Source: Nemertoderma westbladi
Lineage: Eukaryota; Animalia; Xenacoelomorpha
Assembly (NCBI GenBank): GCA_032718475.1
Contig: JAUCBJ010008656.1
Location: forward strand, 1-44,045
Reading direction: 5' to 3'
Length of the DNA stretch: 44,045 nucleotides
In this document: piece by piece, positions 1 to 26,348 of the stretch
Layout: the number at the start of each line of letters is the position of its first letter
Numbering within the stretch: position 1 is the first letter of the stretch
The notes under the pieces: model-generated
What the model saw: only the letters and a program-made list of their open reading frames with translations
Database searches by the model: none
What the model was told of the DNA's origin: nothing
Translations under genes and position numbers: made by a program

Positions 1-2239
1 GAATCTAAGTTTCTCTCCATTAGATAGTACAGAGTTCTGTATGTTATCTTTGTAATATTCATTAAAAGGTAACCATTTCATCTCATCTCCATTGAACTTG
101 ACGATCTCTCCCACCTTCACCGCTTGCCGGGCTTCGGTTCTAGCCATTTGACGCGTAAAACTTTCTTGGGCCATCGTGTTATTTAATATCGAGTTATCGG
201 TATATAAATTTCTCGGATTATGATCAGGTCTATAGGGAATGTCATTATCAACAGGTCTATAATTACCCTTAATAGGGTTCACTATAGGAGTTTCTACTTC
301 GCTAGCAGTATATATGCGTGTAGGCTCCACACCTTGCGCATGAGATACTTCAGACCTAACAGGTTGACACATTGTTACCGAGGGTGGTGGTATACCCCTT
401 TGAGTATTTACTAATTTATCGCGTTCTAGCGCGATACTTTGCTGCACTTCTTGCAACTCTAGCCTACTTTCCCTTACTGTGCCCTTGAATTGCTGAACAG
501 TCTCCTGCATCTGCCCGAGCAGGAGATCCATCCCCCGCCGTCTCTCGTCCACCCATTCGACCGCCGAAGCGGGAGTCGCCAACGTTGTAGCGGGCGGACG
601 AGGGACAACGGGCGACAAATCATGAATATTTCGCTCGGGGTCCAGGACCTGAACTGTTTCCTGGGCAGTTCTACTGGGCACAGGTAGCTTAGTGCTATGC
701 AGAGGGAATTTAGAGGTAGCTTCAGAGAGCACAGGTGTATCTATCACCGAAGGGGTGATTTCAAGAACAGGCCTAATTATTTCAGGCTCATCTACTATAG
801 TAGGGAGTCTTTCTATTTTAATTATTTGGTCTGTGGGCTCTGTACTACCTAAGTTGGTGTTATTTAGTTGCCTTTTAACAGCTGGAGGCAAATCAGGCAA
901 TTTCTGACGGTGGAATGTTCTTTTACGTCTGCTTAGACGAGATCTATTTCCTTTGCCTTCAGTATCGGTGGTATCGCCTTCCTCAGATGATGTATATCCC
1001 TGTCTTTTGGGAGTAGATCGATTCATCATCTGCATATTACTAGCTGTTAACTGTTTATTTATGCAGTCTTGATTCTCCTGAATGTTTTCCAATTCTAATT
1101 GGATGGTTTCTTCAGCCGCTCTCCGTTCTGCTTCTGCCACCGCCTCTGCCGCTTTTCTTTCCGCTTCGGCCGCTGCCATTGCCGCCTTTCTTTCTGCTTC
1201 GGCCGCTGCCATTGCCGCCTTTCTTTCTGCTTCTGCCGGTTTGGCCTCTGCCGCTGCCTTTGCCGCTGCCGCTGCCGCTTTTCTTTCAGCTTCGGCCGCT
1301 TTTCTCTGCCGTCGCTTCACTTTCCACTTGGGAAAAAGTAGCGTCTGTTGATTCTCCATGGGTTGAGCGCTCCTCCAGCTGAGCTTTCCACTGAGCTGTT
1401 CCTTGAACCTGGAGACTCACCCTTTGAAACCAAGTCTTTACGGCAACTTGCAACGACGTGTCTTGCCTTCGTTTAGAAGCCTCCTCAAAGGCCGATAATA
1501 TTAGCCTGATTCGTAGAATTCTTTCTCTAACTTGATAAAGCCGTTGTCCCTGCTCTTGAGGTCCTTGTGGTTGTTGAAACAGTTGTCCTTTTACTCGCTC
1601 CATAGAGCTGAAGAATCCCTGTGCGTATCCGGCTGCGGACCTCTTCCACACAGCTGGATCGATGGTTTCCTTGGCTACTCCCATCCGGTGTATGTCTTCC
1701 CAGGCAGCTTCTGATAAATCAAACGGGAGTCCGGGTCCGGGGAAGTTCCATTGCGACTCGACCATGGACTTCAGTTCTTCCCTTGTGTATCCAGCATAAC
1801 TATCTCTAGTTGAACGCTGGCTTCTCGCCCAATCGATCTGGTGTTCTTCCACAGCGATCAATAACCTAGTGAGTACGGCTGCAGGAAGGATGAGAAGGGG
1901 ATCCGAATAAACCGCATCCATCATCTTTGCTCCGCGTTCTGGTGTCAGTTCTACAGTATCCTCACTACTGGAGCTGTTGGGCCGTTGAGAAGTAAGTTCT
2001 TGGCTCGCGGGTTGTTGCTGTTCTGCTGCTTCTTGGTCCCGCTTGACCTGAGCTCGAGTGCCTATGATAGACCTACGATGTTGGACCAGCCTAGGTTCTT
2101 TTATTACTACTGGAGGGATGACCTTCCTCACAGTGGGAGGTGAACTGAACTTACGACTAGACGGTTCTACGCCTCTATCTGAGTCGCAGATAGTTACATC
2201 TAATAAACTGTCTGACAGGTTCTGCTTAGTATCAGACAT
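1..2239 (-). pseudogene. gag: BEL/Pao gag N-terminus with one frameshift near 1305; open to the window edge
   Basis: ORF 2239-1286 continues in another frame from ~1305 to base 1 with no stop (manual translation), ending IVKFNGDEMKWLPFNEYYKDNIQNSVLSNGEKLRF, which resembles the F-x-G-D..W..F...LS..EKL motif of BEL/Pao gag DUF1759; missed by the ORF track because it has no stop in the window. Confidence 0.82.
1110..1310 (-). repeat. Coding repeat (AEAERKAAMAA-like) in gag, probable coiled coil
   Basis: 33-bp-like units GCAGAAAGAAAGGCGGCAATGGCAGCGGCCGAA on the minus strand. Confidence 0.8.
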
Positions 2240-3555
2240 GTTTAGGTGTACAGTTGAATGTCTACCGCTATATTACAGTCTGAGCAAGTCTAGTAACTCA
2301 GTATTAACTGCTAGCCTAGTAATTAATTACCGGTACTGCTACTCAGTGTAGCGTGATATATATAATATATTAGAATACCGGTATGCTTATAGTATATATA
2401 ACTATTATTACAGACTAGGTTTATCTCAGAATACCGGTATAATTTTAGCACAAATATATATAAATATATAATAGGCCTATCGGGAATACCGGTATACAGC
2501 TTACAGTTTTGTAGTATATATAATTATAATTATGGACTAGAATTAATTATAAAGTACCGGTATAGTTTCAGCCTAAATTTATAGAAATGAAGATAATAGG
2601 CCTATCGTAAATACTGGTATATCAATTATTTTAAATAATTGAATTTCTGAATTTTTGGGTTACTTGGTTACTTTACTTACTTTATTACCGTTATTTGAGC
2701 AGTAATCCATCTGATATTGAGACCTAATGGTTGTAGGGTAGGCCTACTATTTATAAATCGTTAGATTTGATTTATAATATATATATACCCGTTTTAATGG
2801 GTTTTGTCTATGTTTGAAATAAATGTTATTATTTCTGGGGAGTAATCACTACACAAAGCGGTGCGCTTTCAGTGAAGTGTTACTTATAGGACACTAAAAC
2901 AAATAATACTAATTTACCTAAGTTACTTAATACTACAAATTACGTACAATTCGGGTGAGATTACAATCTCTAAATAAACACAAAAATTTACAAAAACACA
3001 AAATACGAATTTTCAGGGTAATTTTACAAGAAGTCTACAAACCAGCCTAACAAAGGGTTAGAAATCTGGTTATTACAACGGACAGGGTACTACGGTATTT
3101 GAAAATAATAAGTAGTAGTAAATACACTGCGTTGTCCAGATAGGAAATACCACCGCCTGACGACCTATAGCCGTATCGCTATAGGTACTACGTTATGTAT
3201 CACGGAGTGTTCCTACCTAGAAGTTAATAGAGCTAATCGAACGTGCCTATCAACCACTTTACAACACAAATATAATGCCTACACTAATTACTTTCGGAAA
3301 GCACTGTACACTAAACCCTAAATTAGGTACGAGTACTTGTACAACATATAATCAGTAGTTAAATATACTTGAACAGCTAAAAGAACCACGGCATCTGCTG
3401 GAGTGACCGGTGCACAAAATCACCAGTCTTTACCTACGCCAAGCAGCCCGTGTAGTACCGGGGTTAATTTAACTATAACGGTATGTATAACAAACACAAT
3501 TATTGTAGGAACAAACTTGGGGAATGAATGTTGCGAATAATCGCATAAACTCTGA

Positions 3556-4130
3556 ATAATAAATATTACGCTACGCGTACAAACCACTCAAACAAAATGC
3601 AGACCGAATACTGACAGACTACTATCAAGCCTAAACAAACTACGGTATATGCAGACTCCGAAATGATTAGGTAGTATGCGTTCTAACCCAGTAGTACGAC
3701 TTATTCTTTAGTTGGGGGTTTACCTTACAGCATTGGCTGCCCCTACTTCCTAACCGTTCTTTATCGGACAGATGCTTTACACACACCGAAATCCGTTCAG
3801 ACCTAATAACAGCCAGACAACTATCCAGCCTACAAATTATCTAAATAAATATTATACGCTACCCGTACAGACTTACACAAACAAAGTACAGACTCAACGA
3901 TGGCAGACTACTCTCAAGCCTAAATATACTACAGGACATGCAGACTCCGAAATGATTAGGTAGTATGCGTTCTAACCCAGTAGTACGACTTATTCTTTAG
4001 TTGGGGGTTTACCTTACAGCATTGGCTGCCCCTACTTCCTAACCGTTCTTTATCGGACAGGTGATCTACACACACTGCAATCCGTTCAGACCTAACAGCA
4101 ATCAGACAACAGTTCAGCCTACAAATTGTC
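3556..4130. repeat. ~290-bp tandem duplication in the leader of element A
   Basis: 3556-3842 is repeated at 3845-4130; element B has a single copy near 15455-15750. Confidence 0.9.
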
Positions 4131-4304
4131 TGTACAATCTGATCAGGCTTACACGCCTTCTGTTCAATACTGGCCTACAAATAAAATAAAACTGACAGAA
4201 ATAAGTAAGCTCCAAAAGAAACAAGGGGTGTACAGTCCCTAATCTCTTAAACAGCCTACCGGTATACAATAATAAAATCGAATAATACTAATGTACTTAT
4301 AAGG

Positions 4305-4452
4305 GAAGTACCGGTTAGGACAGTTGGGCCTACGGACCTACAGAAGTACCGGTTCTGGCAGTTGGACCTACGGACCTACGGCAGTACCGGTTCTGGCGGT
4401 TGGGCCTACTGACCTACTGAAGTACCGTTCAGGTTTACCGGTTGACCGGTAC
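4305..4452. repeat. Short ~36-bp tandem repeat in the leader of element A
   Basis: Units like AGTACCGGTTCTGGCAGTTGGGCCTACGGACCTAC, 3-4 copies. Confidence 0.75.
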
Positions 4453-4557
4453 TTTCAACTTTATAGCTTACTGCAATAAAGAAGCTAAATATCCGTTATT
4501 GTTCTTACCAGAACAATATTAAACTGTATTTAATGCCTACACTGCAATACAGACTAA

Positions 4558-4568
4558 ATATCCGTTAT
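4558..4568 (-). promoter_or_regulatory. Primer-binding-site position of element A (ATAACGGATAT), complementary to LTR segment 5302-5312
   Basis: Abuts the LTR terminal CA; + strand 4558-4568 ATATCCGTTAT is the exact reverse complement of + strand 5302-5312 ATAACGGATAT. Confidence 0.75.
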
Positions 4569-5727
4569 TGTTCGCGCTTTTAGACCTTTGGCAGTTTAAC
4601 CCGCCAAATTAGGATGTCTTTAGATAATAAATCACTTTTAGCCTATGACAAGTATTTGATTCACTACACTAGTCGAAACCAATCTGTGCGCGATCATTCA
4701 CCCGCTGGATATACCCGGGAGATTGGGTTCGACGGCTTAATCTTATTGCTATGTAAGCCTAATGTATTATTCGACTGACAGTATTATATAATCTCTGACA
4801 ATATTATTCACCTTCGGGGAATATTAACAGTTCCTTTAGGACGTGGCGCTCTATCTATATAAACAGAGTTATGACTTAAACTACTCACAACGATATGGCT
4901 TAGTTATAATTCACATATATGGCGCATTCTTTAGGAAATGCTTCGTTATCAGTCTCACTCATACACAATGCTGCACAATACTGCACACTGATCTGCCGAT
5001 CTTCACTGATTTTAGTTATATATAAAAGGAACACGGACCGACTCATGTAGGGTCTATCAAATAACATTAGATTCACTTCAAACCACTTTAACATAAGTCA
5101 CAATCGTTATATGTAACCTTTCTCTCTTACCTTCGGTATATCAAGAATATTGGGTTTCGGGGTTATTTATCGTTATTCCAAATATAATAATTCATCAACC
5201 ATATTATGAAGAACTGACAGTAAATAGCAGTATAACAATAGAAAGACCAAACATCAGTTTGATAAATCAGTTTGGTTTGTTTTGTTATGATAACCAGTTT
5301 GATAACGGATATATGTCCTTATAATTAAGCCTACTAGTGTTAGACTCTGTACAGAAAAGCACAAATATTTCCAAGCCGTTCTCTCCTGGCTCAGGACAGA
5401 AAGACCAACAACACTGAAAACTGATAAGAATAACCTTATTTACAAAGGCTTCCACCCAACACAGAGAAAGAGCATACAGATAGGAAAATTCAGTTCAGTA
5501 GATCTGTGATAGGTCGAAATCAAAATCAACTCAAATCCTATTGGCAGATACTTTCCCAAGCTGGTTGGACAATCAAACGTAGCCCAGATCCCTTCGCACA
5601 GCGAATCAGCCAATCAGCCGGTAGCTTGCGCTATTCGAGTTATAGATCCCTTTTTAGAGTATTCTAGCGCCTGGGGGGAACTGGTTAGCAAGGCAAACGA
5701 ATCAGTTATCCCACAAAAACTTTTACA
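4569..5727 (-). repeat. 5' LTR of BEL/Pao element A (1159 bp)
   Basis: Sense strand TGTAAAAG...GCGAACA; same termini as 8102-9275 and 16031-17210. Confidence 0.88.
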
Positions 5728-8101
5728 CCGCTTGTAACGATCAGTAGTGGGAGTGGTGCGCGCGGGGATGGGTTTGGTGGTCACCAAGGTGGGGAACCAA
5801 TGGACACACTTGGGTGAGGGTTCCGTGCCCGACGTGGTGTCCCTGGTGGTGGTGTCCGAGCTCATGGTGTCCGATGTGGTGGAGGTGTCCCGCAACAGGT
5901 GGTGGCGGTTCCGGACAAGAGAACGTCCGGATGGCAATCGGACTACGTATTTACGGAGGGGCCGGGTTTTGGCAATGGTGCCGGCCCAGTCCCAGTGTCC
6001 AGTTCGTGGGTGCTGGATTCGGACAGGATCGCCGACTGCGAGGGCGGGGAGTGTACAGGCTCCGCGGTTGTAGGTCCGTTTGAGGCTTGCCGCGATGGTG
6101 GGTATCATGAGGTCAAGAGCTGTCCATGCGACCTGGTGGGTGTGCGTGAAGGTGGAGTGGTTTCTGGGAACCCAGGTGCAGACAGGGTGTCCAAACAAAA
6201 TTTCAGTGGGGGATAGTCCGTGCTCCCATGGTGAGTTTCGTAGTTCGAGGAGGCCTTCTAGGAAGGGTGTCGAAGAGACGCCCCCCTGGTCTTGTCTGTC
6301 TTGAGCGCCTTTACGGCAGATTCTGCCAGCCCGTTCGATTGGGGGTATTCCGGCGATGACGTCATGGGCGCGACGCCCCAATCGTGGAGGAACGATACGA
6401 ACGGCTGCCCTGTGAAGGGGGTCCCGCTGTCTGACTGAAAGTGGGTGGGGAAACCGAAGTGGCTGAAAATTTCTCGCATGGCATTTGCAGTCATGATCGA
6501 GGTGGGGGGTTTGGGAAATGGGGCAATCTCGGGCCATCCCGAATATTGGTCGACCACAGCCAGGAAGTGTCGACCCGTGTGCTTGAAGAAGTCGGTCGCA
6601 ATTTCCTCGAACGGCCGATTCGGGAGAGGGTCGGCAATGAGGGGCTCCTTCGGTTGGCTGGCGTGGTGAGTCAGACATGGGCTGCATGCACCCAGATATA
6701 GGAGTTGGCGGGCGCGTCGTAGCGACTTCTTGACGCCTTGGTGAGCGGAGTGTATGTGCGAGAGTGCGTCGCACCATGCCACAGCCGGGACAACTATGCG
6801 GGAGCCATACAGACCGAGATCGCCGTCGGTCGTTAGCTCCTCTCGAATGCCCCAATACGGGCGGACGCCGGAGCCGTGTGCGGCGGCGTTGGGGAACCCG
6901 GACTCGACTGCGGATCTTAGGGTGCAGTAGTCGTCATCATTGCGCGCCACGCGGGACAACTGGACGAGGAGGGGGTCCGGTAGTCGGCCATGGACGGTGT
7001 CATCGAGGTTGGTAGCGACAGACTCGGTGACGGCCTGTAGATAGATAGCCATCTCGCCGTCATCCATGATGTTGGTGGGAGTGGGGTCGTCGACGGGGGA
7101 CCGGGATAGGGCATCCAGGTTTCTGTGTTCCTTGCCCTTGCACCACGTCGTGGAGAATGAGTACGGCGCCAAGTGGGTTTTGAGCCGTTGGAGTCGCATA
7201 TTGTCCGTCACGTCCCATGTATATTTATCCACTATGGTAATGAGGGGTTGATGGTCGACAACCGCGGTAAAGTGCGGGAGGCCCAACAGATATAGTTGGC
7301 ATTTCTCCACAGCCCAGATGAGTGCGAGCAGTTCCAGCTCCACCATCGCATACCGGGATTAAGTGTCGGTGACGAACCGAGATCCGCACTCGATGAGTCG
7401 CCAGTCGGCGTCATGGCGCTGGAGCAGCGCGTATCCGAGGCCATGTAGTTGCAAGGCGTCCATCTCCAGCACCGTGTCTAGTGCCGGGTCGTACGGTGCC
7501 AGAATGGATGTCGTCACGAGTCGCGCCTTTGTATCTTCAAACGCCCGCTCATGGTCGTCGTTCCACAGGAACTGGTTCCTGGAACTGGTTCCTGGAACTG
7601 AGGAGGGGCCGAAGGGGTGACATAGCGCTCGATATCTCATGGGAGAAGGGAGCGAGTTGCTTCACCAATCACACGAAGCTGCGAAGGTCAGTGATATTTG
7701 CACCACTGCAGGTTGACCCACAGACGGGGCAGTTGTCTCTCCCCACCGGATGTCTGCATCCGCAGTTGCTGCAGTTCGTGCCTGACTTCATGTTTGCGCG
7801 ATTGCGACCGTGGCTTGGGGGAGCAGCCGGGTTTCCGCTGTTGTGGTGGTCAATGCCATGATTGTAACCTCGTTGTCCCCATTGGGGCTCTGTCGAGGCC
7901 CGTTTATCCATTTTATATAGGGAGAGTTTTGAGATCGCTCCCGAGCCGAGGATGGCGTCGTTCTGTCCGCTGGCCTCAAATGTTTGGCACGTCGTCACAC
8001 ATTGATCCAGCATTGGTTGGGGGAGATTTTTAAGAGATTGCGTCGGGTCTCCTCGTCGCAGATGCTGATGAGGATCTGCATTACGAGCTGGTCATTGCGG
8101 C
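5728..8101 (-). mobile_element. Decayed Ty3/Gypsy fragment: gag C-terminus, RT connection, RNase H and integrase; protease and RT core deleted
   Basis: Zn knuckle CSNCGCRH..C, then ITDLRSFV; RNase H HGLGYALLQ, ELELLALIWAVEK, DHQPL; integrase HSAHQG, VVDQYSGW, SDSGTPF, YPQSNGLAESAVK; several stops and frameshifts; GC-rich. Confidence 0.92.
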
Positions 8102-9275
8102 TGTTCACGCTTTTAGACCTTTAGCAGTTTAACCTGCCAATTTTAGGTGTCTTCTAGGTTATAAATCGACTTTAGCCTATAACAAGTATTTGATACACAT
8201 AAAGTTACATTAGCCGTAGCCAGCCTATGCGCGATCATTCACCCACGGTTAAGGGAGACTGGATTCGGATGCTCTGACCCTATTGCGGTGTAGACCTACT
8301 GTATTATTCGATTGATTGTTACTATAATATCTCTGACAAATATTATTTACTTTCGGGAAATATTAACAGTTCCTTTAGGACGTGGCGCTCTAAATATGTA
8401 AACAGAGTTATGACTTACACTAAACACAACGGTATGGCTATTGATTTACGTATAAGGCGCATTCTTTAGGAAATGCTTTGCTATCTGTCACACTCATACA
8501 CACTACCTCACACTGCTGCACACTGATCTGCCAACCTTCACTAAATTTGATCATATATAAGGAGAACAGCAACTGACACATGTAGGGTCTATGAAATATC
8601 ATTCAATTCACTCCAAAACCACTATAATGTAAGTCGCAATTGCTATATGTAACCGGTCTCTCTAACCTTCAGTATATCAAGAAGATTGGGGTTTTATGAT
8701 TATTTATCGATATTCTCCAAATATAGCAACATATCCATCAACTGATAACAATTAATAACCAACAGTAAATAGCAGTAAAATAATGCGGTGAAAGGTATGT
8801 ATAGTATGATATGATAGGTATGACAATATGATAACAGTTATACGTTTCTATAATCAAAGCCGTTCTAATGTTTGGCTAAAGTCTGAAACACAGAATAATT
8901 CCACAGCCGATGTTCTGGGCTCAGGAAAAAAGGTAAACAAAGACCATAATGCATTGCGCGATTTCCCGGAGGCTTCTGTGCAAATAAAATGAAAATCGCT
9001 CTGATTGGTCGAGTGAGTGAGCCTGAACAAAGAAAGCCAAAAAGTTCCACGTCTACATATCAGCTGATAGATGTCGTCATCTGAACTACACTGTATTAAG
9101 AGTATTTTGGCGCATTGCGGAATAAGATTGCTTGTTATGTCCGCTAAAGTACACATACAGAAAATGTCCACTAAAACACCTACACAGTAGGAAAACGGCT
9201 TTTTATGTCCGCTAAAACACCTACAGAGTACTTTGCGGGGAAAATGACTAGCTAGATCCGCAAAAGCCTTTTACA
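8102..9275 (-). repeat. 3' LTR of element B (1174 bp)
   Basis: TG...CA termini; preceded on the sense strand by GGGAGCGG (9283-9276), a possible short polypurine tract. Confidence 0.88.
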
Positions 9276-9345
9276 CCGCTCCCAGAAAATGGGATTTAAT
9301 TCTATAAAATATAAAAAATCACAGTTTCTAAAATATAAAAATACT

Positions 9346-10903
9346 CTAAACAGTTAGTCTTTCTTGCACGGACAGCGTTTACGCAGTTTTTTGAGGCTAG
9401 CAAGAGTCCTTTTCTCTTTGGGGCGAGCCACTTTACTAGGAGGGCTATAACTCCTGGGTGAAGGGTGCAATACAATTGCATCGGAAGGTTTAGGATTACG
9501 GTCGATGTATCAGCCGGTCGAGGTACCTGGTTGATCTATATCAACCTCAGTGGAACGAGGTCGAACAACCTTGAGAGCGCATTTTAAGACAGCAGCTCTT
9601 ATTGGTCCCTGACGGGTCGTTTGCACGAAAGCGGTAGGTGGACCGTGTGTAGTGAGAAATTTCCTCGGTTTGATGATTCATTTCAACTCGCGTTCTCGGG
9701 CTCTATCGGAATCGATATGCTTCTCCTCGAGCTGATTTTCCTCCGCTTGTTGTTGGAAGCATTCGTCTAAAACTCTTTTAGAGTAGAGTCGTCCAAGTTC
9801 GATATCTTCTTAGAGATTCTGGATTTCCTGATCGAACTGAGATAAAGCTAATTCGTTTACCGCTTGGACTTGCTGCTGCAATTTACGTTTCTCTAAACAA
9901 TTGTAGGTTCCTTTTCCGATCTTTTGACGAATAGTGTCCAACGCGTTTCGTACAACTCTCTCCTCCGCCTCGGTGACAGGTTGTATCGGGTTAAACCGGG
10001 ACAATGATACGGTTGAATGGCGATATTAGATGTCCGCGTCCCAATCTGACTAGGTAAGATGGGCGAATATTTAGGGAGCCCACAACCGGAGTGCCACCGA
10101 CTAATTGTTCGGGTAACACTAGATCTTTGAACAGTGAGTACAGTTCGGGAGGATCCGTGATACTATTAGGATCAAGAGTCTGAGGTCTCACTAGGGAGTG
10201 AGGAGGTCTGACCGAGTATTCCGGAACTCTGATCATAGGTTTATTTAAGAATCATTTGAGTCGAGCGAGCGTAGGTGATACATCGAACAAGTTTCGCTCG
10301 AAACTCCCGTAAATATAGCGAGTAAAACTGTGTTTAGAGCAACGTCTCCGCTGATGTTTATGTCTTTCCGTTTGTTGGTTGGGTCTTGGGCATTCATCGC
10401 AATAATACCAAAGACGCACGTCTTGTAGGGGAAACGCGGGTGATATTTATTCGGTTTTACAATGTTTCTCTCAAGAATTCCAAATATACGTTGGAGTTAC
10501 CGCGTTTATCAGGTTCTTTAACGTCTTCTCTTTCGAGTCGATTTCGAATAGAATTTTCGCATTCGATTTTCAGTTTATCGTTCCGACTCCGCTGGGTAGG
10601 ATATTTAAATAGGGCCATTTCCCTTTCGGTGTCGACATCGTCCGTATCGTGTAAATCGATAGGATGACCAGTAGTTAAGAAGTCCATATGCGTACCATTA
10701 CGATGCGTATAGCGAGCAGTGAATTTTCGATAGTCCAATTCACGAGTGAGTTGCTCCTTGGACATTGGCGGTTTGATATAACGACCATAGTCCTCCATAG
10801 TAGTTGGACCAGAGTCGCCGCGTATTAAGCTATCAACAAATGCTTGCAACGGTAGAGTATATCGCTCCCTGATACCAAGATCATCTTCTATCAACTCAGT
10901 CAT
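9346..10903 (-). pseudogene. Degraded extra ORF (~500 codons) between integrase and 3' LTR, product unknown
   Basis: ORF pieces 10903-10457, 10236-9991 and 10004-9810 are colinear; reading continues through isolated stops to TAG at 9346; contains WYYCDEC...H...CSKH. Confidence 0.6.
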
Positions 10904-11728
10904 AGCTGCTATATGAGTTTATCAATATTATAATGAGTTTATAATTAGGCTAGCGGGCGTCGCTGCCTACCCCTCACGGCCCCCGGACAGCGCAAGATCC
11001 TCAGCGCTGATGCACTGCCGCCGCTGTGCTTATCGCCAACATAGTAGCTGCACAACGACAACAACAACCAGCGCGAGTCACTCCACTGTCCGTCCCAAGG
11101 GCTAAGATTTACTTCAGGTTCTTACTGCAGAGTTAGGGCTACTTTCATAATTGCGACTCGCTACTGTAAACACACTTTAGTAGTAACATTCACCTATAAA
11201 CGCACAAATTCCACACAACTGTCACAAACCGCACACATTCGGGCCATTTGTCCGTTAGTCAAGTGCCTTCCAGAATGCCACGTTATTATTGGGTATCCTT
11301 GGATACTAGCAGTGTGCTATTTTATTCCTTATGCTATTCAATGGGGCAAGCCTTTATTGTTTTTTTAACTCACTTCTAATTCTAGCGTGGTTGTTGCCAT
11401 GGTGACATTATGGAAAGCTAGCAGTAGAATTAGGGTAATTCTCATGCATACAGATCTGGGATGCTATTTAATAGTAATTCTTTAATTGTCAATATTCCTC
11501 TTTATACATGATTTTATGAATTTTATCGGCTATTGGCTATATATTGGAGATTCTCGCACACTAATACACTTAATAGGGTGAATCTCCGCTCCCATGATCT
11601 ATTAATTAATGGAATTTTGGGAATGTTATAAATTGTATAAAAATGACAATTTATCAAATTCATTAAAAGAGATGAATTTAAATTTATTCCCGTAAATTTT
11701 ATTATTTAATATTAAAATAGACACAATT

Positions 11729-12057
11729 TTATTCCAGAACATGTCTGGGGACTGGGATCCTTGATTCTAGGAAATTTGTCCTTTTAAGAGTATCGGTAAG
11801 TGCTACGATATCTTAACAGACTAGAATTTTAAAGGATCTAAAATTTTACATATTTTAATTTATAGATTTTCTAGAGTTAACTTGTAAGTAGTTACTCTAT
11901 TGTATTTATTTGACAGATTTTACAAATATTAATAGTTAATATTTAAGATGGGCACCGGTTTATTCCAGAACTTGTCTGGGGACGTTAACCACTGATTCTA
12001 GAATTTTGTCTTTTAAGTATATCGGTGGGTGCCGCGATATCTTAATCGACTAGAATT
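11729..12057. repeat. Two diverged ~100-bp direct repeats with hairpin potential
   Basis: TTATTCCAGAAC.TGTCTGGGGAC...TATCGGT....GC..CGATATCTTAA...GACTAGAATT at 11729-11828 and 11960-12057. Confidence 0.75.
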
Positions 12058-12608
12058 ACAGATGGTCAAAGGGTTTAACAGATTTATTTGCGTTCTACGC
12101 TACTGTTAAAGGGACATCACGCTACTATATGTATTATTTAATATACGGTATGAGAGCAATATCGCAAGAAGCAATGTCAGTGAGAAGAGGCAAGTCGTTT
12201 CCAAGGTCTACCCAGAGCTTGGTTTAGCCGAGACACGAGGATCTGAATTTTGCATTCCTAATACTCTACTTACCAATAATACTTGAATATAGTAGGAGCT
12301 TTATTGTACTTTAATAAGTACGGATATTTCATCTTACTGTAGTCACGTATTTATAATGTAATACGGACAGTAAGGAAAGAGAAAAAGAATTATTTCTCGC
12401 CGTCGCACTAAATATATAATATATAAGTAATTAAGTAATAAGACTAATATATATTGCACTAATCTACTAGATAATCGCTAAAATAACATTCTACTAAATA
12501 AAATTAAAGAAAACGATTATAATAAAATTACATAATAATACATACATAAATATAAAATAATAAAAACAAATATAAAATAATATAGTCACACACCCACTCC
12601 AGACGCTG

Positions 12609-14262
12609 TCACGTTGGGGAGTCCCTAGATGTTTCTTGGATTAGGGAGGTGGTCGTGGGAAGAGTATCTTGCCTTCCATAGTTTCCGGAGAGTTCTCTGT
12701 CTCTTTCCAGTAAACATAAACGACCAACTGGGCGATTGAGCTGCTGCGTCTCGAAGACCATTCCCGGTTTCTTAAAGTTACGTCGCATGACGACGAGTTC
12801 TACCGATTGCACCAAACCATCATCCGAGATATGTCTCGATGATACGACCTGTCTGCCACCGCTTACGTGGAAGATCTGAATCCACAATAAGGACCATGTC
12901 TCCGGTGCTGACGTTTTCTTGGTGCGCAAACCACTTAGTTCGAAGTTGTAGCGTAGGCAGATAATGTTTTTCGAAATGGTCAGCGAAACGACGGGATAAC
13001 AACTGCGTAAGTTGCCAAGTTTGCCGGCAGTATTCGTCTCCGTCCGTGATTTCCGATCGTGGGAGCATGGCTACAGGTTTCTTCAGTAGGAAGTGCGCGG
13101 GTGTTAGCGCTTCCAGGGAATCGGGACTCGATGAGACTGGCATAAGCGGTCTCTCGTTGAGATAGGCGGCGATTTCCTCCATTAACGTCCGCAAAAGTTC
13201 GTTGGTGAGATACGCGGGGCACGGCACTATAAAGTGAAATGCTGTCTTCACGCTCCTGATTAATCTCTCCCAACTTCCTCCCCACCAAGGGGCGTCGGCA
13301 GCGTTGAAGGTCCAGCTAGACGCTGTTACCCTTAGCTGATCGTCCACCTGTCTCTGGTTCCAATCTTTGACGTAAGCCTTGATTTCATTGTTGGCACCAA
13401 TGAAGTTCGTTCCCTTATCAGATCTCATCGTGTTACTAGTTCCAAAGTGAGCGTTCTGTCGGCGTAAGCTCAATATGAAGCTATTGGTAGATAAATCGTT
13501 CACCATATCGAGATGGATAGCTCTACAAGTCATACAGACAAAGATGACACACCATCTCTTGACTATAGTCCTAGCACGATATACTTCAATAGGGCCAAAT
13601 AAATCCACACCGGTATTTGTGAAGGGTGGTTCATAGAAGCTTAATCGTTTCCTAGGTAATTCTGCCTCTCGCTGTGTTAAAGGCCTACTGAATGCTTTCC
13701 TACAGGGTATGCAGTTCCTAAGAACTTGGTTCAGAGCTCTACGGGGTTTATAATAATAATAGCGAGTTCGAATTTCGCTAAGAACTCGTTCTCTACCGGC
13801 ATGATAAAGCTTACTGTGAACGTCTACAATCATCTTGATTTGTATTTCAAGATTTCTAATGAGTATGGGAAACTTAGTGTCAAAGGATAATGGAGCATTA
13901 GTTAATCTTCCTCCAACACGTATTAACCCATCTATCATTGTGCTAGAGAAATGATCCCTTAAGCGCATCTGTGGATTTCTCAACAACAGGAAATACTTAT
14001 CGGAATCCTCATAGCATTGCAGGAGTCTCAGTATCTGCTTATTGGTTTCTTCATGCTCCTGGTAACTGATCTTCTCCTTAAGAAACTTGTCGGATATCTT
14101 GTATTTGGGAAGATCTTTAACAACATGGACGTGCGCAGATGTCGGTGGAGCGGTATCACTAGCGATCTTCGTCCTGGAGTAGTGATGATGAAAACATCGC
14201 TTTAAATAAGCAACGGCCTTACAAAGCCGATTCCAGGAGCTATAGTGAATACCGGTATACAC
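12609..14262 (-). pseudogene. BEL/Pao pol C-terminus: integrase (HHCC, DDE core, DUF5641-like tail); frameshift near 12825
   Basis: GLIRVGGRL, H-x4-H...CIPC, GVDLFGP, SDKGTNF, PWWGGSWERLIRSVK, LNERPL, LTPAHFL, then DDGLVQSVEL and RPVGRLCLLE in a second frame. Confidence 0.93.
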
Positions 14263-16018
14263 TTATAGTATATATATAAGTATTATTACAGACTAGGTTT
14301 GTCACAGAATACCGGTATATAATTTCAGCACAAATATATATAAATATATAATAAGCCTATCGTGAATACCGGTATACAGCTTACACTTATAATGTATATA
14401 TAAGTATAATTATAGACTAGAATTAATTACAGAATACCGGTATATAATTTCAGCTTAAATTTATAGAAATAAATATAATAAGCCTATTGTAAATACCGGT
14501 ATGTCAATTATTTTAGAATAATTGAATTTCTGAATTTAAGGGGTTACTTGGTTACTTTACTTTACTTTATTACCGTTATTTAAGCAGTAGTCCAACTGAT
14601 ATTAACACCTAATTGTTGTATGACAGGCCTACTATTTTATAAATCGGTTTGAGTTGATTTATAATATATATACCCGTATAATGGGTTTTTGTCAATATTT
14701 GAAATAAATGTTATTATTTCTGGGAAGGAGTCACTACACAGAAGCTGTACGCTCTCAGTGAAGTGCTACTTGTTGGACACTAAAACAAATAATTCTAATT
14801 TGCCTAAGTTACTTATTGCTACAAATTACGTATAATTGCGGGGTGATATTACAATCTCTAAGTAAACACAAAAATTACAAGTACAAATTTTTAGGTTAAT
14901 TTTACAAGAAGTCTACAAACCAGCCTAACAAAGGGTTAGAATATCTGGTTATTACAACGGACAGGATAATACGGTATTTGAAAATAATAAAGCAGTAGTA
15001 AATATACTGCGTTGTCCAGATAGGAAAAATACCACCGTCTGACGACTTATAGCCGTATCGCTAAAAGTACTACGTTATGTTTCACGGAGTGTTCCTACCT
15101 AGAAGTTAATTACCGCGGCCTACCAGAGCCAATGTGCCTATTAACCCCTCTTACAACACAAAAATACTGCCTACACACTAATTACCTTCGGAAAGCACTG
15201 TACACTAAACCCTAAATTAGGTACAAGCACTTATACAACAAATAACCAGCAGTTAAAAATACTTGAACAGCTAAAGGAACCACGGTATCTGCCGGAGTGA
15301 CCAAAGCATAAAATCTCCAGTCTTTACCTACGCCAAACAGCCCTGATGTAGTACCGGGGTTAATTTAACTATAACGGTATATATAACAAGCACAATTACT
15401 GTAGGAATAAACTTGGGGGTATGAATGTTGCGAATAATCGCATAAACTCTGAATAATAAATATTACGCTACCCTTACAGACTACACAAACAAAAATACAG
15501 ACCAAACGCTGGCAGACTACTATCAAGCCTAAATAAACCAGAGTATATGCAGACTCCGAAATGGTTAGTTAGTATGCGTTCTAACCGAGTAGTACGACTT
15601 ATTCTTTCAGGGGGGATTTGATTTACCTTACAGCACTGGATGCCACCCACTTTCCTAACTAGTACTTTATCGGACATACACTCTACACACACTGCAATCT
15701 CTTCAGACTTAACAACAGTCAGACAACAGTCCAGCCTACAAATTATCTGTACAATCTGGGCAGGCTTATACGTCTTCTGCTCAATATTAACTTATAGATA
15801 AATAAAACTGACAGAAATAAGTAAAATCTCAATAAAAAACCAGGGCGGCCGTCCCTGATTAAATATTAAGACCTACCGGTATATAATTATCAAAAACGAA
15901 TAATACTGCTGTACCTGTACTGCTGTAAGTACCGGTTCGGGTGGTTAGGTAGTCAGGCCTATTGGTTACCGGTCGACCGGTACTTTTGCCCTTTATTGCC
16001 TACGTGCAATAAAGAAGC

Positions 16019-16030
16019 TATAACTGTTAT
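16019..16030 (-). promoter_or_regulatory. Primer-binding-site position of element B (ATAACAGTTATA), complementary to LTR segment 16764-16775
   Basis: + strand 16019-16030 TATAACTGTTAT is the exact reverse complement of 16764-16775 and of 8831-8842 in the 3' LTR. Confidence 0.75.
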
Positions 16031-17210
16031 TGTTCGCGCTTTTAGACCTTTAGCAGTTTAACCTGCCAAATTTAGGTGTCTTCTAGGTTATAAATCGACT
16101 TTAGCCTATGATGAGTATTTGATACACTACATTAGCCGAAGCCATCCTATGCGCGACCATTCACCCGTTGGATATACCCGGGAGACTGGATTCGGAAGCT
16201 CTGACTTTATTGCGGTGTAGGCCTACTGTATTATTCGATTGATCGTTAATATATAATCTCTGACAAATATTATTCACTTTCAGGAAATATTAACAGTTCC
16301 TTTAGGACGTGGCGCTCTAAGTATGTAAACAGAGTTATGACTTACACTAAACACAACGGGATGGCTAATGATTCACGTATAAAGCGCATTCTTTAGGAGA
16401 TGCTTTGTTATCTGTCACAGTCATGCACACTACTGCACAATGCGGCACACCGATCTGCCGACCTTCACTAATTTTAGTCACATATAAAGAGAACAGCAAC
16501 TGACACCTGTAGGGCCTATGAAATAGCATTAAATTCACTCCAAAACCACTTTAATGTAAGTCGCAATTGCTATATGTAACCGGTCTCTCACCTTCAGTAT
16601 ATCAAGAAGATTGGGGTTTTATGGTTATTTATCGATATTCTCCAAATATAACAATATTCCATCAACTGATACAATTAATAACCGACAGTAAATAGCAGTA
16701 AAATAATGCAGTGAAAGGTACGGCGAGTCTGGTATGCCAGGTATGGCAGACTGAGTTGAGTTGATAACAGTTATACGTTTCTATAATCAAAGCCGTTCTA
16801 ATGTTTGGCTAAAGTCTGAAACACAGAATAATTCCACAGCCGGTGTTCTGGCATCAGGAAAAAAGGTAAACGTAAACCATAATGCATTGCGCGATTTCCC
16901 GGAGGTTTCTGTACAAATAAAATGAAAATCGCTCTGATTGGTCGACCGAACAAAGAACAAAGAAAAAGTTACACGTGTACATATCAGCTGATAGATGTCG
17001 TCATCTGAACTATACTGTATCAAGAGTATTTTGGCGTATTGCGACATAAAATCGCTAGTTATGTCCGCTAAAGTACACATACAGAAGAAATGGCTTTTTA
17101 TGTCCACTAAAACACCGGTACAGTAAGGAAATGGCTTTTTATGTCCGCTAAAACACCTACAGAGTACTTTGCGGGGAAAATGACTAGCTAATTCCGCAAA
17201 AGCCTTTACA
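16031..17210 (-). repeat. 5' LTR of element B (1180 bp)
   Basis: TG...CA termini; colinear with 8102-9275; CCAAT box on the sense strand near 16938. Confidence 0.88.
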
Positions 17211-17360
17211 CATCATCTGATATATTCACAGGTTATTGTTAGGTCTTAGGTCCGGTACAGTAAAGCTGTAGAATTTTAAAACAATAGCTGATTTACATTT
17301 TACAATGTTGTAATTTATAAATATTCAAACATCTAGTTTATAGTGGGCAAAGAACATATA

Positions 17361-19560
17361 CCGTAGCGTGGGGTGACATGAGACTAGGGGGAGGCTTGAG
17401 ACAGCAATTTATAAATAATGTTGAAGTGTGATTATGCGAAGACAGATGATTTTCAGTGCGGTTGGAAAAAGCATTTCCTGAAAGCTAAATAGTTCGCCTA
17501 TGTAAATGTACTAATTACTACCATAATATTAGATACTATTCGAAGTTAATTGCGAAAAAGAGTTTCGGTTTTTTACCCCACTTTCCAATAGCCCAAAAAA
17601 TTTCAGATTGCAACGGATGCTCATTCCTTTTCTCAGTTGTGTTTTTTTACATCATATTCAGCAACATTTTATCTTTATAATTTGATTTTAGTTTTCTATC
17701 AATTCTTCTTTGTTTAAGGTTAGCAGCGAATAATTGATCAGTACCTCTATTTTGGGGTGACTTTAGACACTAATGGTTTGACGGTTTGATGGTTCTAGAA
17801 TCCTGTAATGAGTGGTTGATTGATAATAAGCTATCCATTCACTACGGTAAGACTGAAAGTATTTTGTTTGGTTCCAAAAGAAAGTTAAAGAAGGTAACTA
17901 AGTTTGAAGTCACTAGTAATGGACATAAGATTGAAAATAAAAAGGAAGTTAAATATTTAGGCGCCACATTGGATAACTGCTTATCAGGAGAAAGTACAGT
18001 GAAAAATATTTTCTCGAAAGTTAACAGTAGGCTTAGGTTTCTATACAGAAATAAAAATAGTTTAAACACCGACACCCGCAAGTTACTTTGCTCTTATTTA
18101 ATACAGTGTCACATGGACTATGCGTGCTCTTCTTATGGTATGAAGGCTTAACCAAACAGCTTAAATGTAAATTACAAGTAGCTCAGAATAAAGTAGTACG
18201 ATTTATTAAAGACTACAAACCTAGGCACCACCTAACTCCAGATGACGTTTCTGAATCTGGACTACTTAACTTAGATAGTAGAGTTAAGCAGCTACGCCTT
18301 AACCATGTGCATAAAGTGTATAATGGTATATTTCCCAATTACCTAAAACAAAAATTCAACAGAGTACGCGATACACACTCTTACAGTACCAGAGCTAGTG
18401 CTTCAAACTTATACCTCCCGAATTGTAAATCCTTTGAATCTGATACTTTCTTTTTTAACGGTATTAAAAATTGGAACGCTCTGCCTAATGAAATTAAAAA
18501 CCTAAATAATCAACATTCTTTTAAATCTGCAGTTAAATCTCACCTCCGTATGCAATGTAAAAATAGGTACAATAGTCCTACAGTAAGTTATTAGTTTAAT
18601 AATTATTTACTATTTATACTGTAATTACGTTTTATAATAAATTGTTCTGTACATTACATCTTTATCGTTGAGTCGGGCATTGTCACGCTCTCGGTAAAGT
18701 TGTACATGCACATAGTGTAATTACGTTTTATATTGGTTTTAGGTTAGCGTAGTGTAATATTGTATTTGTAACCAAGTAACATAAAGGACCCCCTTGGAAA
18801 TACGCTGCAAAGCTTTAGGGGTAATCCTATATGTTATGTTGGACAATACCTTTATACCGGTACATTGTTTGGTGTATTTGTTATTGTTTTTACATAATGT
18901 ATAAATAAATCTATCTATCTATCTATCTATCTTGACGGACGTAAGATAACAAATGCAACGCGAACGCATGTATAGTATAATTAAATAAGATAACTAGGCT
19001 TGCGGTTTTAAACTCAACAAAAACTTTGTTTATTTAATATTCATATTTGCAATAATTGTAATATAATGCAGCACATAATACAGTAATAAATAAGGTGGAA
19101 TTGTTAATAATACGATTTCTAATGTTTGTCTACTTAACTGAATAATATGCAGTGTAATTTTCTAATATTGGTCTACTTCTACTGTATATAAAAATCCGGG
19201 TGCCATTATTTTATCTACACAGAAACTTAAGTGACTTACTTTTTAAACTTCACTAAAACTCTGTTTATTAATATTCATATTTGTAATAATAATTGTAATG
19301 TAGTAATGCAGTAAGTAGCTACTGTAGCAGTCAGAACCGTATATAATTCAGTAATAATGCCTAATTGTTAATAATACATTTCTAATATTGGTCTACTTTC
19401 TACTTAACAAAACAATCTTATGTTTATCTTCACTAATTTTGTTATAAAAATAATGAAAATTGCTGTAAAACAAACTATCCATGTATTGAATATATGGGGT
19501 TTGTTTTATGGCAAATTTTTTTAAAATATGCACAGTGTCTCATCTCACCCCTTAACATGG
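17361..19560. mobile_element. Old non-autonomous TIR DNA transposon interrupted by a LINE
   Basis: Imperfect inverted ends CCGTAGCGTGGGGTGACATGAGAC (17361) and GTCTCATCTCACCCCTTAACATGG (to 19560). Confidence 0.5.
17785..18931 (+). mobile_element. 5'-truncated CR1/L2-group LINE (RT C-terminus, 3' UTR, (ATCT)n tail) with 7-bp TSD
   Basis: WLIDNKLSIHYGKTESILF, VKYLG, LQVAQNKVVRFI, KNWNALP; one frameshift near 18135; AATAAA plus ATCT tail; TTGACGG at 17778-17784 and 18932-18938. Confidence 0.92.
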
Positions 19561-19571
19561 TTAAAATGATA

Positions 19572-20376
19572 CACCATGTCCCGTAATATAGTGTCATTTT
19601 CTGATGACACGGACCCCCCCCCCCCCCCCCCCCCCAGATTTTTCTACAAATCTTTATCATATTGCTTGAAATTTGAAACACAACTATTCCTTTTGTCTTT
19701 AAATTTTTTTTATAAGAGTTTTAAAAAAGTGTCTTTTACAAAATCACACCCTCCGTATCGTGGCCATTCTTCACATTAGACGTAATTTTTTCATTCAAAG
19801 ATTTTCGTTCAAAGATTGCAAGAATTATTGTTCGCAGCAGGCCATTTATTCTATCTAATAAATACACAAAATTCTAGAATGTGTTATTTATTTTATGAGT
19901 TGGTTGGAAACAGCGGTACTCCTATCCAATATATCTTTGCGTAGCTATTCATACATAAACAAAATGTTCCAGAACATCGTTTATTTATTAAATGGAATAA
20001 ATGGCCTGCAGTGAACAATAATTCTTGCAATCTTTGAACGCCTATATCTCAGCTGTTTCTCAACGAAATTCAGATATTGTTACATATTTGGAATCCTTGC
20101 AACGCAAGCTTTCTAATGATATGAAAAAATTATGACTAATGTGAAGAATGGCCACGATACGGAGGGTGCGATTTTGCAAAAGACACTTTTTTAAAACGCT
20201 TATAAAAAATTTAAAGGCAAAATCGAAAATTCCGGCTTCATGGGGTCAACCACGGTGAGTTGAACTAGGTTGTGTTTCAAATTTGCAAGCAATATGATAA
20301 AGATTTGTAGAAAAAGTTGGGGGGGGGGGGGGGGTCCGTGTCATCAGAAAATGACACTATATTACGGATCATGGTA
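19572..20376. mobile_element. Fold-back MITE with ~200-bp TIRs and an inner inverted pair
   Basis: CACCATGTCCCGTAATATAGTGTCATTTTCTGATGACACGGAC(C)n mirrored at 20320-20376; inner arms ~19810-19880 and ~19965-20040. Confidence 0.88.
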
Positions 20377-20692: not shown

Positions 20693-21794
20693 AGGTAAGA
20701 GGTAGATCGTGATACTATATGATACCTTGTATGTCCGCAATATATTATGTATCATATATCTTGTATGTATCATGTATCTCACAAACTGGTTGACAGCCAA
20801 TAATAATTTTCCTGCAATAAATCCAGTCCTAAAGTGTTACAAACATTCAAACACTCATGTGACTCAAACACATTCGAACACAAACATTTTTTAAAAATTT
20901 TATAAAAAGTGTCTCCGATGAGTACTCCTAAATGGCTGGTCAACGATGCAATACCTATATATTATTATCATTACGAAGTTGTAAAGTCAAGATCCGAATC
21001 CACAAATGTTCTTGCTTTGGATCTTCCCTGGACGTACTGAAAAATCCAGGGGTTCAAAGGTCTAATAAGTCAAGCCGTTCTAAATGCGATCTCAACTACC
21101 GGTCAAACAGTAGTCTTCCCTCTAAGATCCGCCAACCACTGCTAAACCCCCACGAACAGTGGAAGAATCAATAAACTTCCTATTCTCGGGTGTACAGGAC
21201 AGCTGCTGCTAACCACAGCAAATATGTAACCTCACCAGGGCAACGGTCTCCACTTGGGATGGAATCAATTTTGTTACTCAATAAATGAAGCCTTACTAAC
21301 CGACAGACAATCTGTAGATCAGAGTGCGTGCAAGGGCGCGGGTTCATTTTATTTTGGCAGTGATTTTTTATGTCCTTTTATTTGACTTGTTTTGTCCTCC
21401 TTTTTTTACGAATTGTGCATAATGACTTTTGTTGTCCCTTTAATGACTTTTGTTGTCCTTTTAATGACTTTTTATGTATGTATTTCTTCAAACTGTCAGA
21501 CTGCTGATTTCTGGACTGTCAGACAGCTGATTTCTGGACTGTCAGACAGTTGATTTAAACATCCCTATGCCAAAACATTCAAAATTTGTTGATTTCTGGT
21601 CTGTCGGACAGTTGGTTTCACTATGCCTGTGCCAAAACATTCCATGATTTATAGACTATGAGATAGATTTCCATATGCGCCTGTGGTAAAAGACTCTATA
21701 TTTAATAGTTTGTGGTTGCTGTCGATAATCGATTACCACATGACGTAGCAAAACACTCATTTTATAGCCAAAAACAATTACCAATTGATGGCGG

Positions 21795-22353
21795 GTTACA
21801 GAGGCGGGATTTTCTAACCAAAACAATAAGCAGTCACTTTACCAAATCAGGGAAAGGAGCAGGTTACAGAGACGGGATTTTCTAACCAAAACAATAAACG
21901 ATCACTTAACTAATTGATGGAAAGGAGCAGGTTACAGAGGCGGGATTTTCTAACCAAAACAATGAACGATCACTTAACTAATTGAGGGAAAGGAGCAGGT
22001 TACAGAGGCGGGATTTTCTAACCAAAACAATAAACGATCATTTAACTAATTGAGGGAAAGGGGCAGGTTACAGAGGTGAAATTTTCTAACCAAAACAATA
22101 AACGATTACTTAACTAATTGAGTGAAAGGAGCAGGTTACAGAGGCGGGATTTTCTAACCAAAACAATAAACGATCATTTAACTAATTGAGGGAAAGGGGC
22201 AGGTTACAGAGGCGGAATTTTCTAACCAAAACAATAAACGATGACTTTAACTAATTGAGGGAAAGTGGCAGGTTACAGAGGCGGGATTTTCTAACCAAAA
22301 CAATAAACAGTCACTTTACTAAATGAAGGAAAGAAGCAGGTTACAGAGGCGGG
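21795..22353 (+). repeat. ~63-66-bp tandem repeat, about 9 copies
   Basis: GGAAAGGAGCAGGTTACAGAGGCGGGATTTTCTAACCAAAACAATAAACGATCACTTAACTAATTGA-like units. Confidence 0.92.
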
Positions 22354-22606
22354 CCTTCTGTGCTGTTGGAAGTAGTGGTGCCGCTATCCGTAAAACACTA
22401 CTCAGACAGTAGTCATGATCCATTATTGATTATAAAACTAATACAGTAATAGGCCTAAATTATGTGAAAGGTATATCCACATTTTCCACAATCCTGCAAT
22501 CCAGTTTGGCCTATCAATTATTTAAAATTTATTAGCACAAACGGTAGGCCTACCATTACCGTATTTAAATGGTAGGCTACATAGTAGGCCTATAGCAGTA
22601 CCGGTG

Positions 22607-23557
22607 CCGGTGTCACAAGGAAATCAGCCCCCCCTAGAATATGCCCCCCGGGGCATTATTTCCTAGGATATTATGTCCCCCCGGGCAATTTTTCCTAGGA
22701 AATTTAGCCCAGGGGGGGCATTTTCTCCTTAGGAAATAATGCCTCCCCACAGGAAAATTAGCCCCCCTCAAAAGTCTGAAAACTGGTACGATACCGGTCT
22801 GCTGGTAGCCACTTTTAATCTACCAACTGCAGAACTTCTGAACTTGTAATAGTTGGAAGAATAGTACGGTACCGGTCTGCCGGTAGGTAAGCAGGTAAGG
22901 CAGTAAGGGGATGTAGAACAGCATACTGAAGTATCTAAGTCAGTAGGCTACCAGGCTACTGTAGTAAGTACTGGTATAAACAGCAGTGCGAGTGCGTGTG
23001 GTGTTGTGTGGGCGCCGAGCAGCTCCAAGCTTTTTTAAGTCTGTAACCTGCTCCTTTCCCTGATTTGGTAAAGTGATTGTTTATTGTTTTGGTTAGAAAA
23101 TCCCGCCTCTGTAACCTGCTCCTTTCTCTCAATTGGTAATGTTATCGTTTATTGTTTTGGTTAGAAAATCCTGTCTCTGTAACCTGCTCCTTTCCCTGAT
23201 TTGCTAAAGTGACTGTTTATTGTTTTGGTTAGAAAATCCCGCCTCTGTAACCTGCTCCTTTCCCTCTGCCCTCAATTAGTTAAATGATCGTTTATTGTTT
23301 TGGTTAGAAAGGCCTGCCTCTGTAACCTGCTCCTTTCCTTCATTTGGTAAAGTGACTGTTTATTGTTTTGTATAATTTTTGTAAGTTTTAGTAGTAGGCC
23401 TAATAAGTTTTGTTTATTGTATAATTCAGGGGGGGCATAATTTCCTAAGGGGGGGCATTTTTTCCTAGGGAAATTTGCCCGGGGGGGCATTTTTTCCTAG
23501 GAAAATATGCCCCCCCGGGCACATTTCCCGGGGGGGCATATTTTCCTGTTACACCGG
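22607..23557. mobile_element. Non-autonomous TIR element with G/C-run subterminal repeats
   Basis: CCGGTGTCACAAGGAAA ... TTTCCTGTTACACCGG; repeated CCTAGGAAA/GCCCCCC motifs at both ends. Confidence 0.8.
23040..23370 (-). repeat. Inverted block of the same tandem repeat as 21795-22353, about 5 copies
   Basis: TCTGTAACCTGCTCCTTTCC...TTATTGTTTTGGTTAGAAAATCCCGCC is the reverse complement of that unit. Confidence 0.9.
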
Positions 23558-24036
23558 TACTAAAATACAGAAATACCTGCTTTATACCTAGGCCTACATC
23601 TGTACATACAATACAGCAAAATAGTGCTACTAATACCGGTACTGAGAGCCTGAGAGAACAGCAGTAGAGAAACCGGTAGCATGGAACCTAACATTAGACT
23701 TTTGGAGGACATAAAAAATAAAAAAAAAGGACAAAAAAAGGATTTAAACGGACAATAAAAATTATTGCGATTCTAAAATAGGTTTTTTTATTGTACGGTA
23801 AATTTTCAGAATAGCTCGTTACAGCGTTATAGGTGGTTATACCTGTATACTGTTTACTGTTATAGCCCGTTATAGATCGTTCTACCAGTCTACCTTTTAG
23901 TACGTACCAGTATAACAGTATAATGCCATTAACTGTCAGTTTTAGTCAGTATGGATACTGGGATAGGCCTAACGATATTATTAGTCATTATTTACATCCG
24001 TCATAGACGGCAGGACGGAGCGGCGATTGAAAAGCA

Positions 24037-25740: not shown

Positions 25741-26348
25741 TTTACTTTATTTCCTGTTTTTTTTTATTCACGGTTGTTTATATTATATAAAGTTTTATTG
25801 GTCTCCGTCCAATAGCGTACTAAACTAATTTATTATCTTGCAAGACATTTTTTTCCTATTAGTTTTATGGCGGTGGACTAACACTGACTGATTATGATAA
25901 AATGTGTGGCACTCTGAAATTGTAATTGTAATTTCCACTCCATTATACAATAGCTTGATACGTTGGTGGTGTCGCAGCTGGGTTGAAATCCTGTGAGAGT
26001 TACAATTGGAGACGCCCTTTCATATTTGAACTTATTGTATGTGTAATTATAATGTGGCGGCTGAGCTTTAGTTGTAAGCTGAATATAAAAAATACGAGGC
26101 GATTCATGATGTGAGTTTGCGATCCTATATTTCATTGTATCCGTACAAAAATTTTAAATGTGAGAAGTTAGTATAGGAAATACAGTTTATTTAATCAATA
26201 AATCAAAATGTTGGTGATTGTCCTCCGGACATCTTTCGATGATATTGGGTATCAAACACCCACACCCACATTTACATTAACGTATTTCAAATTGATTGAT
26301 TTTACGGGATTTTATTTTCCGAGACTTACATATTACAATACCTAACTA

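Follow-up and report, generated by a model that had tools for sequence, protein, structure and literature searches.

Analysis of a 44,045-nucleotide stretch of DNA (the window) identified copies of a BEL/Pao retrotransposon family that probably primes its own reverse transcription, as judged from complementarity in the sequence. A segment of the LTR would anneal to the primer position, be cut at its 3′ edge and prime minus-strand synthesis in place of a tRNA. This reading had been put forward in an earlier note on the same DNA and is the best one, backed by 12 of 15 related loci; flush pairing as a rule and an origin specific to this family did not survive the analysis.

Comparison of the window with itself showed three related LTRs of ~1.17 kb on the minus strand, which start with TGT and end with AACA. 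LTR A (5727-4569; 1159 bp, TGT...ACA, terminal CA at 4570-4569) is the 5′ LTR of element A, LTR B (17210-16031; 1180 bp) is the 5′ LTR of element B, and LTR C (9275-8102) is a 3′-type LTR. The 3′ end of the LTR was fixed because LTR C stops at the same AACA and then runs into Gypsy sequence. LTRs B and C, 88% alike, may stem from separate insertions; no target-site duplication was found for this pair, the 5′ flank of B differing from the 3′ flank of C.

Elements A and B have in common a leader of ~2.3 kb (2273-4557 in A, minus strand), with 87% identity between 2373-3842 and 14247-15748. In element A, a gag-like region (1-2272, minus strand) occupies two frames (2272-1286 and 1416-1) and runs off the window, so that the element leaves the window ahead of its pol. 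This region had no Pfam match, and its last 35 codons, at the window edge, matched a BEL/Pao polyprotein weakly (E 0.001). In element B, the leader runs straight into an integrase region with PF17921 and PF18701 domains (12820-14247, minus strand), and gag, protease, RT and RNase H are missing. The ~3.3 kb between the end of the integrase and LTR C (12600-9284) holds short broken frames, among them a 153-codon frame (10918-10457) without a Pfam match that is possibly the remnant of an extra gene. A purine-rich, PPT-like tract (9276-9283, minus strand) precedes LTR C. Between LTR C and LTR A lies a broken Ty3/Gypsy-type pol fragment with RNase H and rve (5728-8101, minus strand), which is outside the coding region of the BEL/Pao elements themselves. 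The five bases before LTR A (5732-5728) recur as the final five of the purine tract that precedes LTR C, and may reflect chance, a primer remnant or a chimeric unit made of LTR C, the Gypsy fragment and LTR A.

On sequence grounds, the family is a divergent, high-copy BEL/Pao retrotransposon, unplaced in the superfamily. The two integrase domains of element B are of BEL/Pao type; among the matches listed, PF05380 was present in 119 of the 120 longer homologs, and the best homolog identity was at most 43% in two homolog searches. Element A is tied to B because of the common LTR and leader. The LTRs (1159-1180 bp, TGT...ACA, with the purine tract before LTR C) fit the BEL/Pao range (0.2-1.2 kb, TG...CA, polypurine tract). 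The ICTV profile of the Belpaoviridae describes tRNA priming, at an 18-nt site that pairs with the 3′ end of tRNA-Arg or tRNA-Gly, and calls replication poorly understood (PMC8742986). The window elements resemble this description in integrase domains, TGT...ACA LTRs of ~1.2 kb and a purine tract before the 3′ LTR, but, unlike it, neither A nor B has the 18-nt tRNA site or a TGG near the LTR end (PMC8742986). A tRNA-type site is also absent in 12 of the 15 BEL/Pao relatives described below, and is therefore not universal in the group. The BEL/Pao-type integrase sets the element apart from the Tf1/sushi group, which has a Ty3/gypsy chromovirus pol, and by analogy the element most likely works like Tf1 without being a Tf1/sushi member.

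Pairing between the LTR and the primer-binding position

The primer-binding position of element A (4558-4568, minus strand) has no TGG and is the exact complement, over 11 nt, of a site inside LTR A (5302-5312, minus strand) that ends in AT followed by C and is the candidate self-primer. In element B, the primer-binding position (16019-16030, minus strand) is the exact complement, over 12 nt, of 16775-16764 (candidate self-primer at 16764-16775, minus strand), and the same 12-mer is found in LTR C at 8842-8831. The sites of A and B are homologous, and both end 733 nt before the LTR end. The earlier note had placed the complementary segment of A correctly, at a distance of ~735 nt, and rightly reported that no TGG follows the terminal CA: the first TGG lies 59 nt past LTR A, and none was found within 150 nt past LTR B. 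Its claim that the pairing is flush with the LTR holds for A and B, where the offset from the LTR end is 0, and fails as a general rule, given a spacer of 0-4 nt in relatives. Dinucleotide shuffles of the LTR reached the observed pairing length in 13 of 20000 cases for A and 10 of 20000 for B, a chance of ~5e-4 each. A second copy of A's primer-binding 11-mer, overlooked in the earlier note, is present at 4489-4499 (minus strand) through a 69-nt duplication and is absent from several contigs of other copies. We rejected the reading of the two arms as DNA-transposon terminal repeats, as only the left arm lies within LTR C, which stops short of the right one.

Two positions of the site distinguish elements A and B, and both differences are matched at the partner positions of the primer site, as had been claimed. 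Crossed combinations break the pairing, leaving 5 nt for the A primer site with LTR B or C and 6 nt for the B primer site with LTR A. Correspondingly, duplex energies were -12.0 and -11.4 kcal/mol for the own pairs and -2.8 and -5.6 kcal/mol for the crossed ones, a loss of 6-9 kcal/mol. If two random changes must meet both partner positions and letters, the expectation is 1 in 495; this evidence consists of two site versions, A and B, each paired with its own primer site. The stretch or part of it was present in six public sequencing runs from four studies, of which four were compared, all as contigs, and the family is very abundant in the contigs of one organism. None of the runs listed was an RNA run. 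Six further versions of the primer site, decoded by hand and readable on the primer-site side, were each A-type or B-type at both variable positions, with none mixed, and three of them carried one extra change.

The site is a conserved island. Far upstream, LTRs A and B were 40% similar; the value was 54% over the 48 nt just ahead of the site, 83% in the site, 34% from +4 to +65 and 81% beyond. LTRs B and C were identical over these 48 nt. The upstream fall in similarity that the earlier note had taken as the mark of a nearby U3/R boundary was thus present, but similarity drops on both sides without a clean edge. Directly after the site lies a hypervariable, low-complexity segment (5240-5298, minus strand). 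In run X1, alignment depth on B's site fell from ~60,000 to 11,000 and then 1,200 within 10 nt past the site, and run X3 showed a similar drop (~50-fold within 10 nt), with loose ends unlike one another. Together with the A/B identity of 34% against 81%, the drop in depth indicates that the site closes a conserved block and that the hypervariable segment comes next. A 21-nt LTR-end pattern had no match in metagenome contigs.

In predicted folds, the duplex was part of the minimum-energy structure if the RNA starts at the site, with mean pair probabilities of 0.87 and 0.94 in A and B. With starts farther upstream than 16 nt in A or 2 nt in B the duplex dropped out, lying 2-9 kcal/mol above the best fold. 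A 7-bp hairpin is predicted in U5 (4588-4607 in A, 16069-16050 in B, minus strand; pair probability 0.99 in both), and another just 3′ of the primer-binding site (4524-4552 in A, 16014-15991 in B, minus strand).

Primer sites of related BEL/Pao loci

An alignment of 33 BEL/Pao polyproteins led to 94 loci; relatives were not found in the viral collection. The LTR 3′ end was fixed by comparing two copies in 15 loci, of which L077 ends at the contig end, and the LTR ends of L011 and L018 were set by hand, on inspection after the first results. The search for pairing permitted a spacer of 0-5 nt and one GT-AG intron. With these settings, 12 of the 15 loci paired over 10-13 nt with their own LTR, nine across a predicted splice junction and three contiguously, and no more than 2 of 500 shuffles equalled the pairing length of any one of them. 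The remaining three had a TGG-type site and self-pairing of only 4-5 nt. In a first pass over 13 loci, L013 (truncated LTR) and L077 (stricter acceptor cut-off) had failed; splice thresholds were loosened after the first results and the controls rerun under the new settings.

Cross comparisons reached 10 nt in 7 of 272 cases, all within L013/L024/L032 or within L084/L094, which are sister families, and the 12 loci therefore stand for about nine lineages. The sister loci L084 and L094 keep the pairing with three different letters. Among 14 self-complementary rows, which include both window copies, the site ends in AY in 12 and is followed by C in 9. A blind scan covered 46 further or overlapping regions, 26 expected to hold an LTR and 20 upstream-only. 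Matches equalled in no more than 2 of 25 shuffles were obtained for 21 of the former and 2 of the latter. The matches in L026, L033 and L082 look spurious, being unrelated to the LTR end, and were omitted from the later comparison; the scan missed L011 and L018. The repeats of L011 (~91) and L018 (~911) end in TA and not CA, and both have self-complementary primer sites.

A quick integrase tree of 94 rows grouped the three TGG rows (support 87) and mixed the contiguous and junction types. As 59 of the rows are unlabelled, it cannot count intron gains or losses, and the window row sits on a long, unplaced branch (2.19). Kinship of the window family with the self-complementary relatives is suggested by domain content and the shared end motif. 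The earlier note had supposed an independent origin of self-priming within BEL/Pao; any such origin would not be particular to this family, the signature being common to a broad BEL/Pao set. One record titled as a Wolbachia chromosome holds a TGG-type BEL/Pao element with both LTRs (L093), through host contamination or a real insertion, and the other genome-contig loci, found in MAG records, are probably host DNA.

Candidate mechanism and alternatives

Under self-priming, transcription would start at or slightly upstream of the site in the 5′ LTR. The site would then base-pair with the primer-binding position, 733 nt away, in the same RNA molecule or in its partner. Cleavage where the duplex ends on its 3′ side (between AT and C here, AY and C in most relatives), probably by the RNase H of the element as in Tf1, would free a new 3′ end, and synthesis from it would begin at the terminal A of the LTR. 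RNase H cleavage of the Tf1 primer is a precedent for such a cut (available text of PMC7175516), of which the ending in AY before C, shared with most relatives, would be an indirect sign. From what is generally known of LTR reverse transcription, plus-strand copying of the primer should carry changes in the site to the primer-binding position, and we propose that matched changes therefore arise without double mutation. Misaligned strand transfer at the cut end, again on general grounds, might yield the hypervariable segment after the site. Element B, having no RT, would need RT in trans.

As described in the available portions of the sources, Tf1/Tf2 of Schizosaccharomyces pombe, Tj1, Tf1/sushi and Tcn1, which are Ty3/gypsy chromoviruses, resemble the window elements in having no tRNA site and an LTR segment of 11-12 nt that is complementary to the sequence just after the 5′ LTR (PMC7175516, PMC4600332, bioRxiv 10.1101/2022.12.06.519325). 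They differ in carrying a chromovirus integrase, in contrast to the BEL/Pao integrase here. In Tf1, the first 11 nt of the RNA serve as primer, and a ‘pretzel’ of three duplexes is required, according to the accessible part of PMC7175516. In predicted folds of the window elements, unlike Tf1, only local hairpins flank the site, with a looped-out stretch of 733 nt, and no Tf1-type three-duplex structure was common to A and B. Self-priming is not confined to Tf1/sushi, the lineage with which the earlier note had associated it: as far as the available text of PMC6317226 goes, in the Copia TAR lineage (Houba, Osr-1) it is likewise predicted, on the basis that 10 nt or more, lying 0-5 nt from the LTR end, are complementary to the LTR. 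The window elements show complementarity of this length and position, but the TAR elements are plant Ty1/copia, and neither matched changes nor splice-junction evidence was seen for them in that text. No report of BEL/Pao self-priming was found in the literature, with most subscription papers, Repbase notes and supplements outside the coverage, which agrees with the earlier note, and the ICTV profile describes these elements as tRNA-primed. The words PBS, primer and tRNA do not occur in the accessible text of PMC3118150, nor do PBS and tRNA in that of PMC554778. The supplements of PMC3118150, as described there, hold classified BEL/Pao sequences bearing on superfamily placement.

It is unlikely that the pairing, though real and selected, acts as a structural or regulatory switch (in packaging, dimerisation, translation or primer-site shielding) and that the primer comes from the host, for example as a fragment of a tRNA or as a small RNA. 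Such a primer would have to change with each family: the site letters differ among about nine lineages and track their own LTR each time, and the pairing sits exactly where the three tRNA-type relatives, which are without self-pairing, have TGG. In its favor, the duplex is not the best fold at most start positions tried, and half-tRNA priming exists in Copia lineages, according to the available text of PMC6317226. The window contained no tRNA gene, and comparison of 2300-17400 with Rfam gave no match. It is very improbable that the complementarity arose by chance, or that a single local inversion or template switch left it behind, without function, in a common source of both copies. The window holds only two informative copies, and the duplication of A's primer site region shows that rearrangement occurs there. 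Nevertheless, the low chance expectation per copy, the matched changes and the fact that distant relatives show such pairing again in other letters, in part across predicted splice junctions, strongly disfavor this explanation.

The position of the transcript start bears on a further alternative that we also regard as improbable, namely that the element is tRNA-independent but the site lies in U3 just upstream of the start, so that the primer comes from the 3′ LTR copy of the genomic RNA, cut at the U3/R border, probably on a partner RNA. The sole TATA-like word lies 10-11 nt before the site and, if used, would put the start downstream of it; in both A and B this word is 23 nt before the A of the TCA that follows the site. 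The conserved block ends there, and no AATAAA common to the three LTRs was found that would fix R. However, 23 nt is short for a TATA box, whose usual spacing is ~30 nt. In relatives, AATAAA or ATTAAA usually comes after the primer, and 10 of 31 non-window rows have TATA-like words 26-75 nt ahead of it, a raw count with no null. In 33 hand-picked rows, likewise with no null, such words lay 41-64 nt before the primer in seven, 26-28 nt in two and elsewhere in two, and were absent from 22. Moreover, junction primers should not be able to come from a copy in which the intron has to stay if the LTR is to be rebuilt.

For self-priming from the 5′ LTR, the start predicted in the earlier note, at ~5312 in A and 16775 in B, is not supported as given, and one exactly at 5312 is uncertain. 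The junction-spanning segment in nine relatives needs an upstream exon, and the primer may therefore be internal and not the first 11 nt; in terms of the model, an internal primer in a short leader is as plausible as a 5′-terminal one. A splice-junction primer was rejected for the window LTRs, where the best junction reached 8 nt in A and 6 nt in B, compared with contiguous pairing of 11 and 12 nt. The LTRs do contain a conserved, strong splice-donor-like site ~170 nt after the candidate primer (5130 in A, 16591 in B, 8666 in C), which could remove the primer site and the long leader from the messenger. A conserved acceptor-like or initiator-like motif lies 35-41 nt before the candidate primer (5347 in A, 16816 in B, 8883 in C), and no good splice donor was found upstream of it in the LTR.

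Taken more broadly, self-priming is quite possibly, though still short of probably, the usual mode in a large, mostly aquatic branch of BEL/Pao. It would descend from one ancestor, distinct from Tf1, and would use a leader-segment primer cut at a sequence-defined position between AY and C. In many lineages, host splicing of an LTR intron would assemble this primer, and the window family would be the intron-less form. If a large part of BEL/Pao self-primes, tRNA independence arose in a third LTR-retrotransposon superfamily, annotation based on tRNA sites misreads or misses such elements, and host control via tRNA fragments would not be expected to reach them. The junction-type relatives would tie reverse transcription to splicing. 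The model specifies the primer, the cut site and the RNA-DNA junction at single-base resolution, so the mechanism is directly testable on natural RNA and cDNA.

Other features of the window

Several other features were seen in the window. Tandem arrays occupy 29600-33700, 38200-39500 and 21720-23530, with units of 57/63 bp, 60/117 bp and 68 bp, and both arms of a long inverted repeat consist of the 68-bp array. Elements at 19570-20375 and 26346-28511 are related to each other and, with their long terminal inverted repeats, are MITE- or foldback-like. RT fragments (Pfam RVT_1) were found at 35871-36666 on the minus strand, and frames at 17774-18594 on the plus strand resemble a non-LTR RT tail by eye, with no Pfam match. 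An uninterrupted 569-codon frame at 24031-25740 on the plus strand encodes four MBT repeats and an FCS zinc finger, and by this domain content we take it to be L3MBTL2/Sfmbt-like.
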